From assembly GCA_000182565.2 (NCBI GenBank), contig KQ257465.1: 64,000 bases of DNA. One strand, given 5' to 3'. Under the pieces are notes generated by a model. The model ran no database searches. It worked only from the letters and a program-made list of their open reading frames with translations, and had not been told where the DNA came from. This DNA comes from Spizellomyces punctatus DAOM BR117 (taxonomy: Eukaryota). Positions 45,691 to 64,000 of the stretch are shown piece by piece. Position numbers and translations under genes: made by a program. Position 1 is the stretch's first letter, and the number at the start of each line of letters is the position of its first letter.

Positions 45691-46907
45691 TCTCCCTTCA
45701 CCGCAGGCCAGAGCCAGATGCTCTCGGTCAGTTTATCTGCCTGGAAATGGGGCTCTGATGGGCCTGAAGGACAGGTCTAGGAGTAATTTTGCGATAGGTG
45801 GTTTTGACAGTTCCAAGCTAGTGACAGATGCAGGCAACAGAACAACTGTACACAGAGGCCAAGCGACAGATGCTGGAACAAGAAGCTCTTGGAGACTGAT
45901 GGCAGCTCGGGGACGGCAAAGTGCCAAGCGTTGAACGTTGTTTTTGGCGTGTGGGAAACAACAAAAAAGCGGTCTTTACGAGTACTCATCATCAAATGGC
46001 CTAAGCACATCGTGATGAATGTGGCCTGTGATGGACTGTGCCACCTGCGGGTTTTCAGGACGCTCTCAAAAGGAGACTCTGAACGCAATTGCTTTTTAAT
46101 GCCGATGATGGCGGTTTGGAATTAGCATTTTTGTAGCTCTGGTGTGTGCCTATCCCATTGGCCGTGTACGGTTTCTTGCGTACTGCTGCTGGGGCAAACT
46201 TATTGTTGTCTACTGCATTCCTTGCACGAGCTACCAGCATCTCTTTTGATTTTCAGTTTTTCTTGAAAACCCTAGCACTTTTATGCTCTTGCCCTCCATG
46301 GAGGTTTTTTTAGCGACCATCCACTGGAATGCTCATATCATTGCAGTCAAACGTTGCAACATTTGTGATGATTGGGGAAGTTCTGGCAAGAAATATATCT
46401 CTTACTCTCGACTCCTCGCTGTCTCTGCCTCTCACCCAAATGTGACTTTTTGAAAAAGTAGCTTACTTCAATTTTGCCATCAACAATGTAAACACTGTCA
46501 CCCTCGGTTGCCTTGGGGTGATGAATCATACCAATCAGCACAAGTATTTTGCTCTTCAAAAGGATAAAGGAAATGTGTGTACCAATCATCATTCTGGAAT
46601 AGTACAAATGCATATTCCATGCAGAAAGAAAATATTCCAAATAAGAAATCACGTGGATATTCAATACTGTTATTTAGAAAAAAGAATATTCCTACTATTT
46701 GTTATTAGCCATAGGTTGTGAGGAGATGCCCTCAAATTACATCAAATTACATAAAATATGATCGGGCGACAACAGGAATTATCCTTGGGGAAACATTATT
46801 TATCATTTGGTGTTTGTTCTGCATAGAAACAGTCTTTGACTCCTGCAGTTGGAATATAAAAATACAAGGGAACGCAAGCATTCTTCCCTTGGTTTCATAT
46901 CACAAGT

Positions 46908-48824
46908 ATGGAGAAGCAAGTATCTCCACTGCTCCCAACAGTATCCAAAACTGTTGCGTATCGCAAAAATCCTGCATCTCACCGATATCATATGCGCTTG
47001 CCGGTATGGAGAACGCTCGCTCTCTTGCTGGTCCTTATCAACACGTACGCCATTCCCCGCTGTGGACTGTATCCTCTCTTCAACACCCAACTTGCTACGA
47101 GAAATTCGCAGTACAGACAAGCTGCAAATCCTACGGACAGTATCCCTCAGCAGCGTGAGTTTGCGCCAGCTGGGCCGAAAAGGTTTACTGCCGTCATTAC
47201 GTGGGTCAATGGTAGCGACCCGCTTCACCAGCAGATGCGCTCAATATACGCACGGGAGGCACCACATGTCAACATGGTAAATCGGTTCAGAGATCTCGGT
47301 GAATTGAGGTACACCGTGAGAAGTCTGCAAAAGTTTGCCAGCTGGATCAAGGAAATTCTCATCTTAACGAGCGATTATCGGAACGTGGAATATGGATCCG
47401 ATCGTGGACAGGTTCCAATATGGTTTGCAGAGGTGTCCTCTGAAAGTGAACCAGTACCTCCCGTACGAGTAATTCATCATGACGAGTTTTTTGCAAACGC
47501 TCAAGGGTCGCTGCCGACATTCAATAGTCTGGCCATTGAGAGCCAATTGGGGAATTTGCCAGGGCTCGATGAGGATGTGAGTGTGACCTGCTCCACTGTA
47601 CCGTCCGCTGATCCCATTGCTGAACAGTACTCTCGCAACAGATCATGTTATACTTTAATGACGATATTACCGTCGGGCAGGCACTCCAATCATCAGACTT
47701 TTACTCTCCCGAGTCCGGATTTGCTTTCGCCATTCAATCTGATCTGCAGGTCAGCGCCTTTGACCGGCCGCCTCGCATTGAATCTTCTCAAGGAGAGTGG
47801 CCCGCTCTTGACTGGTCCAACTATTTACTCAGTGAGTATTGTAATGGAATCTTGGCTGTTCTGCTCTCAAGCCTAACTGTATCATTTTACTCCAGGTCAA
47901 AGATTTGGCAAACGACGACGGGGTTATGTCGCTCACAGCGTTAAAGCCTTTGCGACCCCTCTATTACAAGAACTGGCCTCAGATTTCCCCTCAGCCTTCC
48001 GACAGACGTCTCATCACAGGTTTCGCGGCATCGGTCACGACGTACACACTCCTTTCATGGCCGTGCACTATGTCCTGGAAATGCATCGCGAGAGTGTGTT
48101 GAAATACTTTGTAAATAACGTGCTAGATGAGAACGGAGATGGTGTTGTGGATGATCAGGAAGTGGAAGCATTGCAAAAATTGTCCTGGGACGCAGACTTG
48201 GTGAACGGGAACGGAATTCCTGTGCGGGAAAATCGGAGGACATGGGACTCGAGGAATGGCTACCCCCACATGACAGTCCAGCCAGAGGCAGGGAATGCAT
48301 GGACATACACTGATGGCACCCCACCTTCCCTCCGCAAATGCAGCTTTTCGCTTAACGTTTGCCTTCCGTCAGTGAGATCAGCTCAAGCGATTTTGCGCCA
48401 CATTGGCCGCGAACACATTGCTTGCGGAGACTGCCTCCTGAATACCATGGCCCGAGCTTCGGGCGACGCTGGAATCGACTCGTACCTCGTGCAAAACACC
48501 AAGCGCAACGTCAGCTCAAATCCGCTAGCTGAAGTCTCAAAATACAAATATTCGCTTACCTCACTATCTCTGTCCTTCCTGAAGCTCGAAAACGACGACT
48601 GCGCGACATGGAGATCTATGGAACTTCTGGCGGAAAATCCAACCGCAATAATATGTTTGAATGACGATATTGGCAGACCAGGTGCCGTGAACGGCATAAA
48701 GAGTATGCTGGAAGTGTTCTTTGCACGTCTAGGATTGAAGAATGACGGAGCCGCCATCAAAGAATTTGACGCATGTGCGCCAAGGAGTCGTCCAAGGAGA
48801 CCTATTCTCAGCGATTTTAGTTAG
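46908..48824 (+). CDS. Stealth-family sugar-phosphotransferase (XPT1/GNPTAB-like)
   Basis: CR1 FTAVITWVNGSDP, CR2 RFRDLGELRYTVRSL..LPTFNSLAIES..LYFNDD, CR3 YVAHSVK..HRFR, CR4 ICLNDD, and an N-terminal TM anchor. Confidence 0.9.
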
Positions 48825-57916: not shown

Positions 57917-60456
57917 TCAAGTGGGACGGGGAGAAGGAACAGGTGGCACCGTAACCTGAGGGGGCACAGTGGTCAAGTGTATAGCGGTTCTTGTAGTCGA
58001 CAGAGTATTCGTCGGTGTGATGCATTTTTGGGTATCCGCAGGAGCCCAGATACCTGCCGGCCCACAAAGAGCCGTTTGATTTCCTACCAAAGGCGAAGGA
58101 CAGGGGCCCGTGGCGTTCTGTCCCAGTGGCGTGCGCGGGAACACATCCGAGACGCAAGTCGACTCCTTGCTCCAAACACACTGCGACGTATCGACGGTAG
58201 TCCATTTGCCACTTGGAAGGCAGCGTGCCGTTTGATTGCCACTGAAGAGAACGGGACATGGAGCACTTGCGATTCCATTGAAAGGCGTTGCGGGAAACAC
58301 GTCAAATGCCGGGCATCCTATGCGATAGCACTGGGAGGTGTCGGGGGTAGCCCATATACCATCTGGATTACACCGAGCCGTCATGTTACCGGCAAAACCG
58401 TTTGAGCAAGATTGAGTTGCGTTCTGTGTGTAATTTTAGACCAAAGCATATGAGAAATAGCCATAATTGACAACTTTGTACAGTGGATCTGATAAACAGT
58501 ATCACGAGGAATAGTTTAGATACGTTACCTGTCCAGCCAGTTTACTCGTCCATCCTGCCGCTGTCGGGCAGACAACGATCGGAGGATTGCATGTGGATAC
58601 CACCTTTCCCCACAAGCCGTTCGATAGACACTCAGCGGTAACATTGCCGTTCGCATTACCATTTGCACAGGGTATCGTAGCACTTGCGTTAGCTGGGGTT
58701 GCAGTCCAGTTTCCAATATAATTCACCCCGTCTTGCGACATCATAGTGGCTGCGGAACACTTGATGTCCAAGGGCCACCCGCAGGCGCCAAAACCTTCCT
58801 GACACTGGGAAGGACTACAGTATTCGGACGACGCGGCGCACTGACCTGCCTTACCACAGCAGGCGGTTGGCCCACAGGAAGTCTGATTTACACTTGTGAA
58901 GCCGCAGACTGAAATGGTACCGTATTTAGCATAGGTAATGCGCGACGAGCAATCGGATCATCTGAGAAGATACCTGCGGTCTTGTCAAATGTCTGGGGGC
59001 CACAATCTCCGTAAATTGGATTACATGTGGTGCGATCACAAAAACTGCGGAAAGTCCCGCATTGGCCAATAGATGTATCACAGCACGTTCCTTTGGGACA
59101 TCTCCTATTTTCCGCAGTCGCGTAAGGACCACATTCTAAAACAAAAGTAATTAGCAACATGATTCTATGGTGTTTTCAAAGCCTAACGAACAGGTTGGCA
59201 GGCAAATGCTTACGATGATTCTGGTTGAAAAATTGAGTACATTGGCCTGGTCCAAAGCCTATCTGACATCCCGTGGGTGCGCCATTTTGGGAAGGCTTTT
59301 GTGGATCCGCTAGCATGCAATCAGCAAAGCCCAATCCACAAAGGCCCTGTCCGTTGCAGCAGCCGGTTGGACAAACAGCAAAGTTGGCAGAAGTAGCGCC
59401 ACATACTAAAATTGGCGCAATTGTGAGATTTACGTTCAAAGTTCGAGAAAAAAGAAAGCAAGTATATTGAGTGATAACACATAAAAGTTACTTACTAGCT
59501 TTTGGGTCGACAGTCCTGTGTGTACAAGGTCCATATCCGTAGCGGCAGTTGTCAGGACCGCAAAAGTCGGGACCTGAGCCGCAAAGTCCTTTCAAGCTGC
59601 AGCATTGACCATTCGGACATAACGGGGTGGCTGCCGCAGGCCCGCATTGTTCGGCTTGAGGCGATGCAGCGTAAGCATCAAAGGTCATCGAGGAGTTTGC
59701 CGGTTGCAGAGGAGGAACATAGGGCAGGTTGGGGATTGTGGGCAGGAGGATGGTTTCAACTGCATCTTGAACGGAATTTTCGCCGCAAATCCGAGTTCTG
59801 TAATACGTAAAGTGGGTAGTTAGAAAGTAGTAAATAAGCCATGAACCACAACAAACTACATGTAAGAGGTTGCCATACCTCAAAATGTATAACATCTGCT
59901 GGGCATTGGCATCGACCGGTTTCCTCAACAGGGTTGCGGCGAGGAAGCAACCACAAGCAAACTTTTTGTCCAGTACATCGAAAATGTTAGCCTTTGGATC
60001 GATTTTCGACAAGACATCTTTGACCTGCTTGACACAATTTGCACCGGACGCAGCGTCATTTGCACAGGGGAGTGCAGACGAAAGAACGAGATGGCGGAGG
60101 ATATAAGCAATGTTGGCAGTAGGACCCAGCATAAAATCCATGGGACAGTCCTTCTGGACCTGAAGGTTAAGGGCCTGTAAGGACTGCTGACAAGCGCCCT
60201 TGGGATCGCAGAAAGCCGCGCGTTCTGCGTCTTGATTCAATGAGGAGAGGTTTCCAAAAACAGCCGCGCGGCTGCACTGCAGCTGCATTCCCAGGGCGGC
60301 AGCGCAAGCAGGCGTGGGAACCTTGAACGCGGCGAGATCATTCGGAGTAAAGAGGGCAAAGGAAGACGGGATAGCAGCGATGGAAACGTCATTTGCTGCC
60401 GCCAATACGAAAGCTACGAGGACGGCGGCGGCCTGCCGTGCTGTGAAAAAAAGCAT
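57917..60456 (-). CDS. Secreted non-catalytic Cys-rich protein: N-terminal Cys domain + 4 hevein/CBM18-like + 4 HormR-like repeats + P/T tail
   Basis: Signal peptide; CAAALGMQLQC..FCDPKGACQQSL..LPCANDAASGANC; CG..CP..CC...G.CG units x4; C..W/FP.T......CP....G..TA.C...G.W...D.S.C units x4. Confidence 0.8.
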
Positions 60457-60582
60457 GGAGCAGCGACAGAAAGATGGACAGCTGTTGCTCGTGGCACTGA
60501 GAGCGAGAAGCTCCAGGCGACAATGCGAGGGAATATCCCGGAAGACAAACACGCTGCTCAACACGCTCGGCGGGGAAGCATT

Positions 60583-60752
60583 TCACATGATTGGATGCAG
60601 ATCTGCGCCTACAACAAGAACTAAATCGTGGAGAAAAAGTTTTGATCGGGGGGATTTGTCCCACGGACTCGGGCGGAATGGAATTCATCCATAAAAAAAG
60701 TTTTTTAGAATCATGGCTTGGCTTGCCTTCGTGCTTCAGTCACATGATTGGA
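60583..60752. promoter_or_regulatory. Duplicated 13-bp motif TCACATGATTGGA in a bidirectional promoter
   Basis: Exact copies at 60583-60595 and 60740-60752, each followed within 1-2 nt by GCAG. The motif contains an E-box (CACATG) abutting an inverted CCAAT. Confidence 0.55.
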
Positions 60753-60822
60753 AAGCAGTTGCTTGCAGGACGCTGTTCTTCCCAATTCCCTAGTGCTTGG
60801 GCCATTCCGGTTGCTGCCTACG

Positions 60823-63800
60823 ATGCGCATCCTGGCAGTATCCCTGGCTCTGTTGCTGGTGGTGGGCGGGACCACTGGGTCACCGTCTAGCACGAACTAC
60901 AACAAAACAAAGAACAAAGTGCACTTGTCAAAGAGATGCGCTGCAGGTCTCATCACTTGTGGAGAGGACTGTTTCGACCCGGCTTTGGGCGAATATCACT
61001 GTGTAAACGCTCCAGATGGAACACCTTTGTTGGTTCAAGGCCCCGGGTATAACCCCAACGATCGTAAGTGTCTCATGGGAGGGGAAAGGGTTTGGTCTGT
61101 GGGTTACCTTTCGTCCTCCTTCCGCCTTCCGACTGGTTCTCCCCTCAAAGTCACTAACTTATCCACATATCTTTACGCACAAAGCCGATGCTGAGATACT
61201 GCCCGCGGATATCACGGACATTGGAACTCCTACTGGCCAAACGAAGAAGATTACAATGACCAACAGATGTCCGCACAAAGTGTGGCCGGCTCTTCAGGGA
61301 AAATTCGGCGATCCTGTCCCGGCCGACGGAGGATTTGGAATGGGACCGGGTACGACTGTAACCGTTCACGTTCCATATAATTGGGAATCCGGACGGATCT
61401 GGCCGCGGACGGGCTGCAAGATCAACAATGGAAAAGTCTTTTGTGAAACAGGCACGTGCGGCATCAAAGAAAACGGCTACGGCGTGCAATGCAAGGGCAA
61501 TGGAGGAGTGCCGCCATACACCATCGTCGAATTTACTTTGCACGGGTACAAAAACCTTGATTACTACGACTTGTCTCAAGTAGATGGTCACAACATTGGA
61601 ATCGCTGTCGCAGTTGTGGGAGGTGATAAAATCAACGATCCCGATATGGTTGAGCCCAAATTTGACTGCGGAAACGCGGCGTGCAGGATGGACATTTCCA
61701 AATACTGTCCCCCCGAGTTGGCCTTTATGAGTAGTGACGGGAAAAGAATCGTGGCATGCGGGAGTATCCATAACGCTGTGGAAGACCTCGTCCAGAGGAC
61801 GTTGCATCCTGACCCTTTGAAGCCCCTCTTTGACGATCAAGTCAAGAGGTCGCTTGTTGGATGCACCTGTGACCCAACAGGAACTTACAACCACTGCTAC
61901 GCAAAGGTCGATAAGCGTCCTGAGGCCGAGGGGAAGCGATGCTATGTGGAGGACTGGCCTTCTGTCAAGGAGCCCGGCCCATGGCCTACCCGATACGACA
62001 AAGTCTTCAAAGACAGGTGTCCGCGTGAGTTCCTCGTGCACTTTGGGTGGCCATTCTGGATGTTCTTGGGAACATCGTCTGCCTTCCTTTACCTGTATTC
62101 ATACTTTTTGACAAATCATTGTAATCTTCAGTTGCTTATTCGTGGCAGTTTGACGACTTTTCCTCGACGTTCAATTGCCGAAACGCCGATTACCATATAA
62201 CATTCTGTCCAGCGGCCGAGTGCGGGAAGGAAGCAAATGGAAAGGAGTGTCCCAACAATGCATGCTGCTCTTCATTCGGGACCTGTGGAGTCACAGAGAC
62301 AGAATGCGGTGACGGGTGTCAGTCCAACTGTAACAGCTTGGACGATTTCCCTGGCCCTGGAACATGTGCGTCACCTCCTTTGACCATTGTTGTCGGGTAC
62401 TATAGCAATACGGCGTACGGACGAGGGGAAAACCTGCCCAACTGCAAAGGGACGTTGAAAGCGATGGCCCCGGAAGACCTCCGACCGACCGGTTTTACTC
62501 ATCTGAACTATGTAAGGTTACTTATTGATGTGGATTCCACAGAGCATAATCAGATCTGTGTGAGTCTCTCTCTGACAGACTCGTCTTCCACATTTAGGCA
62601 TTCGGTGCGATATCCGTTGACTTCAAGCTTACCACCACTCGAAACGAGGATGACGATCTCATCAAGAGGTTCAATGGACTCAAGAGTTCGAACGGGAACT
62701 TGAAGACCTTGTGGTCAATTGGTGGATGGGCCTTCAATAATCCAGGATCTGGGACGGAAACACGATTTTCCGACATGGTCTCGTCTCCGGCCAATCGAGC
62801 CACGCTCATTGGCGATATTGTGCGGACAATCCCTGGACGTGGATTCGACGGAATTGACTTTGTACGTTGATTCGTCCTGTCGTCAATGCTCATCACTCTC
62901 TACTGTCTTAACAGTGCCCCTTTCTTCTGCGTCTTGGAATTAATAGGACTGGGAGTATCCAGGCCCGGCGCGGGGTGGTAGGGATTCTGACCCCGCAAAC
63001 TTTGTGCAATTTCTCAAGGAACTCCGTCAGGCTTTTGACCGCAGCAATCTCAAACTGATCATTACTGTCACGGCTCCCCCAACTCAATTGAACCTTGCTG
63101 AATATGATCTGAAGACGTTAAAAGAAAATGTTGACTGGATCAACTTGATGACCTACGACTTTCATGGAGCCTCTCCCGCCGTTAACCAACCGGCGAATCC
63201 CGTCGACAATCGGCCACCACCCAATGCGTGGGGCAGCGAATCCTTGGGCGTCCAGCCGCACGCTAACAAATTTGATATCGACAATGCTCTGCGAGCGTAT
63301 CTCAAAGCCGGTGTTCCACGGGAAAAACTTGTCATGGGAATTGCGTTCTACGGTCGTTCGTACACGTTGATGCGTCCTGATTGCATCGACCCGGGATGTC
63401 CGTATTCCAGTGCCGGGAAACCGGGCGTGTGCACTAACGTCCCTGGGTTCATCAGTTACTCCGAGGTGCAGGCCCTCGATCGGACGCAAACTGCGGTAGA
63501 CAAAACTAGCATGAGCGCCGTAGCAAGTTCTGGTGATCAATGGATCTCGTAAGCAGACGATCTGATCGTTGTTCTAGATGTGGATTTAAGTTAACCAACT
63601 TTCACTAACTCACCATGCCGTCCTTTATAATATGCACCTCCGGCCTTTCACAGATATGAAAACCACGAAACAATTCAAGCAAAGATGGGCATCGCCGCCA
63701 AACAATGTCTCCCAGGTGTCGCCATTTGGTCTCTCGACCTCGATCCGGATGGTGTATTGCTTCTCTCTGTTACAGGCAATGCCAATACAGAGACTCCCAA

Positions 63801-63969
63801 TACAGGGTTTTGTACCGCTGACGGCCGCTGGAGAACGACCGCAGCTGGGCAGACGAGTTCCTACAATTGCCCATACGGAGAAGGATCGATAGTGCGACAC
63901 TGCGGCTCAGACGGCCGCTGGGGAGACGTGGTCAACAATTGTGCCGATGTCCATACTGGTGCGTGCTAG
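60823..63969 (+). CDS. Secreted thaumatin-like + CBM18 + GH18 chitinase fusion with C-terminal HormR-like module
   Basis: Signal peptide; thaumatin ([51 protein letters not shown]); CBM18 ([14 protein letters not shown]); GH18 ([26 protein letters not shown] across an intron, [32 protein letters not shown]). Confidence 0.9.
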
Positions 63970-64000
63970 CAAGGTGTGGGGCGCGGCTGCTTCTTTTCGT

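Follow-up and report, generated by a model that had tools for sequence, protein, structure and literature searches.

In the genome of the soil chytrid Spizellomyces punctatus DAOM BR117, one stretch of contig KQ257465.1 (assembly GCA_000182565.2) encodes a thaumatin-like protein (TLP) domain and, directly behind it on the same strand, a chitinase of the family GH18. This raises the question whether both parts belong to one polypeptide and what such a protein might do. The whole stretch of DNA that was analysed, hereafter the window, comprises 64,000 nucleotides. A sequence-only reading had proposed a single polypeptide at 61190..63760, composed of a TLP domain, a chitin-binding module (CBM18) and a GH18 domain with its catalytic motifs. 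The fusion was borne out by the sequence, by identity to an annotated protein of 1114 amino acids and by ten further proteins. The proposed extent was too short, as the gene starts upstream at 60823 and extends beyond 63760, to an HRM-like module and off the window. Judged from its sequence, the locus is one real, conserved, multi-module chytrid gene of the secreted type, with chitinase motifs and TLP cleft both intact.

From stop-to-stop frames and the nucleotide sequence of 60700-64000, a single gene of six exons, all on the plus strand, was derived; it runs from 60823 to at least 63958 and leaves the window at its end. The five introns measure 85-121 nucleotides and are all bounded by GT..AG; the joined frame has 877 codons without a stop. 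Exon 1 (60823..61063) contains the start codon, a signal-peptide-like N-terminus and a motif with four cysteines, and ends at the donor GTAAGT. Removal of intron 1 (61064..61184; 121 nucleotides, phase 1, GT..AG) restores the frame and reproduces the annotated protein exactly. Exon 2 (61185..62024) encodes a linker and, from approx. 61253, the main part of the TLP domain, with the Pfam family Thaumatin matched on 61187-62023. It is followed by intron 2 (62025..62131; 107 nucleotides, phase 1, GTGAGT..CAG) and exon 3 (62132..62511), which are treated below. Exon 4 (62598..62861) belongs to GH18 (Pfam E 1.2e-12) and ends with FDGIDF, the first part of the DxxDxDxE motif. Exon 5 (62947..63548) continues GH18 (E 9.6e-31 on 62947-63546) with DWEYP, which includes the catalytic Glu578, and with MTYDFHG. 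Exon 6 (63654..63958) holds the end of GH18 to approx. 63744 (AIWSLDLD) and the HRM-like module with four cysteines at approx. 63829-63936. A further donor (GTGCGT) stands at 63959 and the gene extends past the window.

The fusion itself was located in exon 3, which is one open frame without a stop. This exon encodes the last 26 residues of the TLP domain (AYSWQFDD...ITFCP, end at 62211), then CBM18 (62218-62331), which begins three residues on, a linker of 18 residues and, from approx. 62389, the first 41 residues of GH18. As all three domains meet in the single frame of exon 3, the fusion is independent of any intron call. It had been claimed that the TLP domain runs in frame from ITFCP into CBM18 and GH18 after a short intron, and this agrees with the open exon 3 and with intron 2. 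Across the splice between exons 2 and 3, 41 residues match, over their full length and with no notable gaps, the extreme C-terminus of solved plant TLPs (residues 182-222 of 222 in 3zs3, E 2.5e-9). Since this alignment reaches the C-termini of TLPs, intron 2 interrupts the TLP domain, which becomes complete once the intron is removed; a retained intron would put a stop at 62198-62200. The junction is identical across 11 fused proteins from separate assemblies.

The translation obtained from the window, 877 residues long, is identical at every position to residues 1-877 of SPPG_07647, a GenBank protein from S. punctatus DAOM BR117 (1114 amino acids; P0017 in the following). The fused gene is thus already annotated as one protein, under the name "uncharacterized protein"; its last 237 residues fall outside the window. 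This one-protein annotation had been overlooked by the sequence-only reading, together with exon 1 and the modules downstream of GH18. On full P0017, Pfam gave 228.1 bits for GH18, 153.3 bits in two stretches for Thaumatin (PF00314, cut-off 27.4), 36.7 bits for Chitin_bind_1 (cut-off 27.8) and 25.5 bits for Carb_bind (PF10645, cut-off 25). The order of modules is signal peptide, small cysteine motif, TLP, CBM18, GH18, HRM-like cysteine module, a Ser/Thr/Pro-rich stretch and an Eng1-type module. In the AlphaFold model, the predicted local confidence (pLDDT) is mostly 80-99 over residues 40-820. A tblastn search of the window with P0017 gave no match besides the gene itself, and a search of the ESM Atlas with the sequence gave no usable match. 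In the literature search, no paper was found on SPPG_07647, A0A0L0H9C3 or XP_016605298 and no title or abstract on a thaumatin-GH18 fusion; supplements of surveys, which lay outside this search, could list the architecture. In the two surveys of chitinases that come nearest to the subject (PMC8042737, PMC12115818), the accessible text has 0 occurrences of "thaumatin". The modules are all known; their combination is annotated as a protein and was found described in no paper.

The TLP domain was identified with exon 2 alone, which matched Pfam Thaumatin with E 4.1e-38 (131.6 bits) and the PDB entry 3zs3 with E 3.3e-23. Between residues 104 and 388, 16 cysteines were counted, the number typical of long TLPs (a count only, with the pairing of disulfides set aside). 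The Rhizophlyctis orthologues are without two of these, both in an expanded region. The acidic-cleft residues had been described as retained (R of GRIW, E of VEFT and two D of YYDLSQVDG), and the alignment with 3zs3 agrees with this. The REDDD-type residues correspond to R151 (SGRIWPR), E196 (IVEFT), D209 and D214, and D368/D369 in AYSWQFDD match AYSYAYDD of 3zs3. None of these cleft residues (R, E and D) varies among the 11 fused proteins in the sequence alignment. Compared to plant TLPs, approx. 70 extra residues lie between the 9th and the 14th cysteine, beside the cleft, and were partly modelled by AlphaFold as four short helices (residues 275-306, pLDDT 88-95). In comparisons between genera, identity to the S. 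punctatus protein is 63-82% for the TLP core and 52-58% for GH18.

The TLP fold is filed by CAZy as GH152. With PR-5 TLPs and GH152 proteins such as TLG1 of Lentinula edodes, the chytrid domain shares the Thaumatin profile, the 16 cysteines and the REDDD-type residues. It differs from them in that it is not free-standing, carries the expansion and is joined to CBM18 by its final residue (FCP). In the accessible text of PMC3048497, REDDD stands for dispersed residues of the TLP cleft, and the TLP-kinase fusion is named as an unusual TLP fusion for plants. These PR5-kinases resemble the chytrid protein in having the TLP as N-terminal extracellular module of a larger protein (PMC3048497, accessible part). 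Their partner is a cytoplasmic kinase across the membrane, whereas the chytrid TLP shares a single secreted chain with a carbohydrate-binding module and a glycoside hydrolase.

CBM18 was matched in exon 3, translated over 62134-62511, by Chitin_bind_1 with E 8.5e-11 (42.4 bits) and has eight cysteines in residues 389-428. The GH18 motifs are FDGIDFDWEYP (residues 570-580), MTYDFHG and AIWSLDLD. The claim that DxxDxDxE is retained proved correct, with the motif split by intron 4 into DGIDF (62847-62861) and DWE (62947-62955). Besides the GH18 profile, the TIM-barrel fold with insertion domain was matched, and pLDDT is mostly 85-99; a loop of approx. 25 residues (650-674) was modelled at low confidence. 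The closest solved GH18 is human chitotriosidase with E 1.8e-51 over residues 472-807, and DxxDxDxE aligns with the same motif there. Foldseek with the full-length model gave a target template-modelling score of 0.83-0.85 to chitotriosidase, and GH18 chains alone were among the matches listed. Human chitotriosidase and acidic mammalian chitinase share DxxDxDxE and MxYD with the chytrid enzyme at approx. 29% identity; the accessory modules and the loop 650-674 differ.

DxxDxDxE, MxYD and the late Trp are all intact in six of the 11 fused proteins, including that of S. punctatus. The five fused proteins of Geranomyces (P0002, P0018-P0021) all have FDGIELDWQ and VYEY in GH18 and a Ser in place of the late Trp, and their TLP cleft residues are unchanged. 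The Geranomyces GH18 is probably catalytically dead beside an untouched TLP cleft, and these proteins offer a built-in natural comparison.

Further modules were found on both sides of the three main domains. In exon 1, the start was judged by eye to be signal-peptide-like. The following four-cysteine motif (...LLVQGPGY) is 49-75% conserved in those orthologues that include their N-termini. It corresponds to no Pfam family and was modelled by AlphaFold as a small beta unit of four short strands (pLDDT 85-91). The HRM-like module directly after GH18 scored 25.4 bits with PF02793, just below the cut-off of 26.2. It is kept in all orthologues that reach that far and was modelled as three strands (pLDDT 72-83). 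Beyond the window, P0017 contains a disordered Ser/Thr/Pro-rich region of low model confidence which is poorly conserved apart from two elements. One is a polybasic, Kex2/furin-like site (RRQR, RRKR and similar) at residues of approx. 914-920, conserved in both chytrid orders; the other is a DLWDLM(K/R)xNP motif in the region of residues 985-1010, likewise conserved over both orders. Their presence suggests proteolytic processing and a short functional motif. The C-terminal stretch with ten cysteines (residues 1069-1108) matches the PF10645 module of Eng1 from Schizosaccharomyces pombe with a marginal score. PF10645 corresponds to CBM52 of CAZy, a module that binds beta-1,3-glucan. TLP and Eng1-type module also occur together in two other Spizellomycetales proteins (P0011, P0174). 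No LysM family (CBM50) was found in P0017 in a Pfam scan at E <= 0.01.

The architecture had been called uncommon, and it was found only in Spizellomycetales and Rhizophlyctidales. The 11 collected proteins with the TLP-GH18 fusion come from Spizellomyces, Geranomyces, Thoreauomyces and Rhizophlyctis. A search of longer proteins with the thaumatin exon gave nine matches, six of which combine PF00314, PF00187 and PF00704; they belong to Spizellomyces sp. 'palustris', Geranomyces variabilis, Thoreauomyces humboldtii and Rhizophlyctis rosea (three proteins). SPPG_07647 shares its 90% cluster with the 'palustris' protein, and the Geranomyces cluster contributed four more full-length proteins, one of them from G. 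michiganensis. The same six were the only fused proteins among 16 matches (E <= 1e-10) of a six-orthologue profile to proteins of similar length, and again among 12 matches of a short-TLP profile to longer proteins. An exhaustive HMMER profile search over 1.84 billion representatives gave 17235 matches at E <= 0.001, of which the best 150 (at least 243 bits) were examined. No fusion outside the four genera was found in the three word-indexed searches, which miss distant relatives, or in these best 150 of 17235 matches, a limit that would hide a distant fusion.

Hidden Markov models of TLP and GH18, run over 170 collected proteins, found both domains in 11, TLP only in 11 and GH18 only in 148. 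In a FastTree phylogeny of 82 GH18 domains (77 of 159 were dropped as they covered fewer than 250 profile positions), the 11 fused proteins group together as a single clade (support 100). In an IQ-TREE phylogeny of 23 TLP domains (three fragments dropped), they likewise form one clade, with support 98, and TLPs of long Chytridiales proteins are the neighbours. A single origin of the fusion would fit both trees, without being proven by them. The result is a lineage-restricted domain shuffle of familiar parts and overturns no view.

Chytrid TLPs also recur in other long multi-module proteins (P0007-P0009, P0011, P0013, P0174). Their partners are an Eng1-type module, PA14/GLEYA or stretches with no other Pfam match (1210-1638 amino acids), and in chytrids the TLP seems to serve generally as a part from which large secreted proteins are built. 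Records labelled as the rotifer Didymodactylos carnosus and the tardigrade Paramacrobiotus metropolitanus (P0156/P0175, P0165) furthermore contain TLPs of the chytrid type, which match the TLP profile over its full length with 220-234 bits. These TLPs could stem from horizontal transfer or contamination.

Concerning function, the protein is likely secreted, targeted to and acting on the composite of chitin and beta-1,3-glucan in fungal-type walls. Chitin and beta-glucan are the principal polymers of the cell walls of fungi. The signal peptide would send the multi-module protein out of the cell, where CBM18 would bind chitin and GH18, of the chitotriosidase type, would cut it. The TLP cleft and the C-terminal Eng1-type module may recognise beta-1,3-glucan. 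The two chitin-directed parts (CBM18, GH18) and the two glucan-directed parts (TLP, Eng1-type module) would then act jointly on the wall composite. From the domain sequences, we infer a putative dual activity on glucan and chitin.

Several points weigh against this assignment. Chitin hydrolysis is, as predicted from the five altered Geranomyces orthologues, not conserved across the fused family; as their GH18 catalytic residues are lost and the TLP cleft is kept, chitinase is not an activity that all members share. Known TLPs include inhibitors, membrane-active antifungals and sweet proteins as well, and the cleft residues alone are therefore no proof of glucan binding. The Carb_bind match is marginal and its region was modelled at pLDDT <50. 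Transcript data are too sparse to show splicing and are uninformative either way. From one raw RNA run labelled with the same species, two other RNA-labelled runs and one contig run, 27 reads were placed on the locus, with 18 partial fits and 0 joints. The contig pieces (60600-61097 and 62658-63905) stop short of the junction between TLP and chitinase.

Whether TLPs bind glucan or hydrolyse it is a long-standing debate. It is possible, if somewhat doubtful, that the protein is truly bifunctional, with the TLP as a second catalytic centre beside the chitinase, namely a GH152-type endo-beta-1,3-glucanase like L. edodes TLG1. All REDDD-type residues are present in this protein and constant in the family, and the TLP is better conserved than GH18 and kept where GH18 catalysis is probably lost. 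The tlg1 study, which is cited in PMC3048497, reportedly concerns a TLP in lentinan degradation. Such a function is opposed by the expansion of approx. 70 residues, which adjoins the cleft in the chytrid TLP; moreover, most TLPs with an intact cleft have, to our knowledge, weak or no glucanase activity. A stronger version, in which the PR-5-type domain and not the chitinase would be the indispensable core of an all-in-one wall-active protein that unites a beta-1,3-glucanase and a chitinase centre with one binding module each for chitin and beta-1,3-glucan, is held here to be decidedly speculative. If true, this would be a natural single-chain counterpart of the plant-defence pairing of chitinase and PR-5, for attacking fungi or for opening the own wall.

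An antifungal weapon, related in kind to the killer toxins and subgroup C chitinases, which would breach the walls of other fungi with the TLP adding a PR-5-like antifungal action, is regarded as unlikely. Chytrid walls themselves contain chitin, and the target may be the chytrid's own wall or that of another fungus. The fusion has one or two copies per assembly and is highly conserved, versus the expansion and fast change usual for weapons, which is a weak argument; conservation and low copy number lean weakly to an action on the chytrid's own wall. The conserved polybasic site after the enzyme part fits a weapon, and so does the CBM18 on the N-terminal side of a large secreted GH18, a layout shared with subgroup C chitinases and the alpha subunit of the Kluyveromyces lactis toxin (PMC4392113, accessible part). 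According to the available text of PMC8042737, S. punctatus is discussed as a possible decomposer of mycorrhizal fungi. The killer-toxin-like layout and this reported association with mycorrhizal spores would lean to an attack on other fungi (PMC8042737, available text).

The likeness to the subgroup C ('killer-toxin-like') chitinases and to the zymocin alpha subunit of K. lactis lies in the large size, the secretion and a CBM18 that precedes a GH18 of the chitotriosidase/class V type (PMC4392113, accessible part). In contrast to subgroup C, a TLP precedes CBM18 in the chytrid protein and HRM-like and Eng1-type modules stand behind GH18. Its size is approx. 120 kDa compared to 150-250 kDa for subgroup C chitinases. 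The definition of subgroup C, in the accessible part of PMC4392113, combines LysM with CBM18; as no LysM was found in P0017, the chytrid protein falls outside of it, and this also speaks against a weapon.

That the modules only bind chitin and glucan, as in a non-hydrolytic wall lectin or a structural protein which might organise the chytrid's own wall, is very unlikely. All five Geranomyces proteins were retained without the GH18 catalytic residues, which would fit a lectin, but all three GH18 motifs are intact in the S. punctatus gene and in the majority of the fused proteins (six of 11).

Finally, it is scarcely credible that a TLP gene and a separate chitinase gene were wrongly merged or that the assembly is chimeric, and this reading was rejected on the open frame of exon 3 over both junctions, on the junction shared by 11 proteins from separate assemblies and on the truncated TLP that a split would leave, without its last two cysteines and the last cleft Asp. 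In its favour stand the lack of an RNA joint among the 27 reads and one Geranomyces annotation with two models on one contig, P0023 (265 amino acids) and P0022 (358 amino acids, partial). However, P0023 ends in the middle of the TLP, and P0022 opens with the C-terminal end of the TLP, to which CBM18 and GH18 are already attached. Since the break falls within the TLP and P0022 carries the TLP end and CBM18, this split is an artefact of the gene models and not a domain boundary.

For the likely action of the fused protein on fungal-type walls, the joining of a TLP with a chitin-binding module and a chitinase, retained over two chytrid orders, would represent natural evidence for work of the TLP on the chitin/glucan composite. 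A single-chain wall-degrading enzyme may also be of practical interest. S. punctatus is reported to be genetically tractable, so that the function can be tested.

In the genomic neighbourhood, a divergent gene on the minus strand (57917..60462) starts approx. 360 bp from the ATG of the fusion gene. It has a signal-peptide-like start, CBM18 with 30.4 bits and three HRM repeats with 54.1 bits, a score far over the HRM cut-off. HRM is otherwise known from class B receptors of animals. BLASTP between the HRM of this neighbour and the HRM-like module of the fusion gene gave a weak match (E 0.016). Both genes may share a promoter and a chitin-related role. In the rest of the window, this immediate neighbour is the only chitin-related gene. 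No cluster of wall genes was found in the window, where the other genes are ordinary (MFS, Sec39/NBAS, WD40, ribosomal L5, endonuclease, Stealth). The Stealth match (a capsule-type phosphotransferase family) was obtained at 46860-48824 on the plus strand, where two adjoining open frames match CR1/CR2 and CR3, respectively; the two probably form a single gene, separated by an intron or a change of frame.

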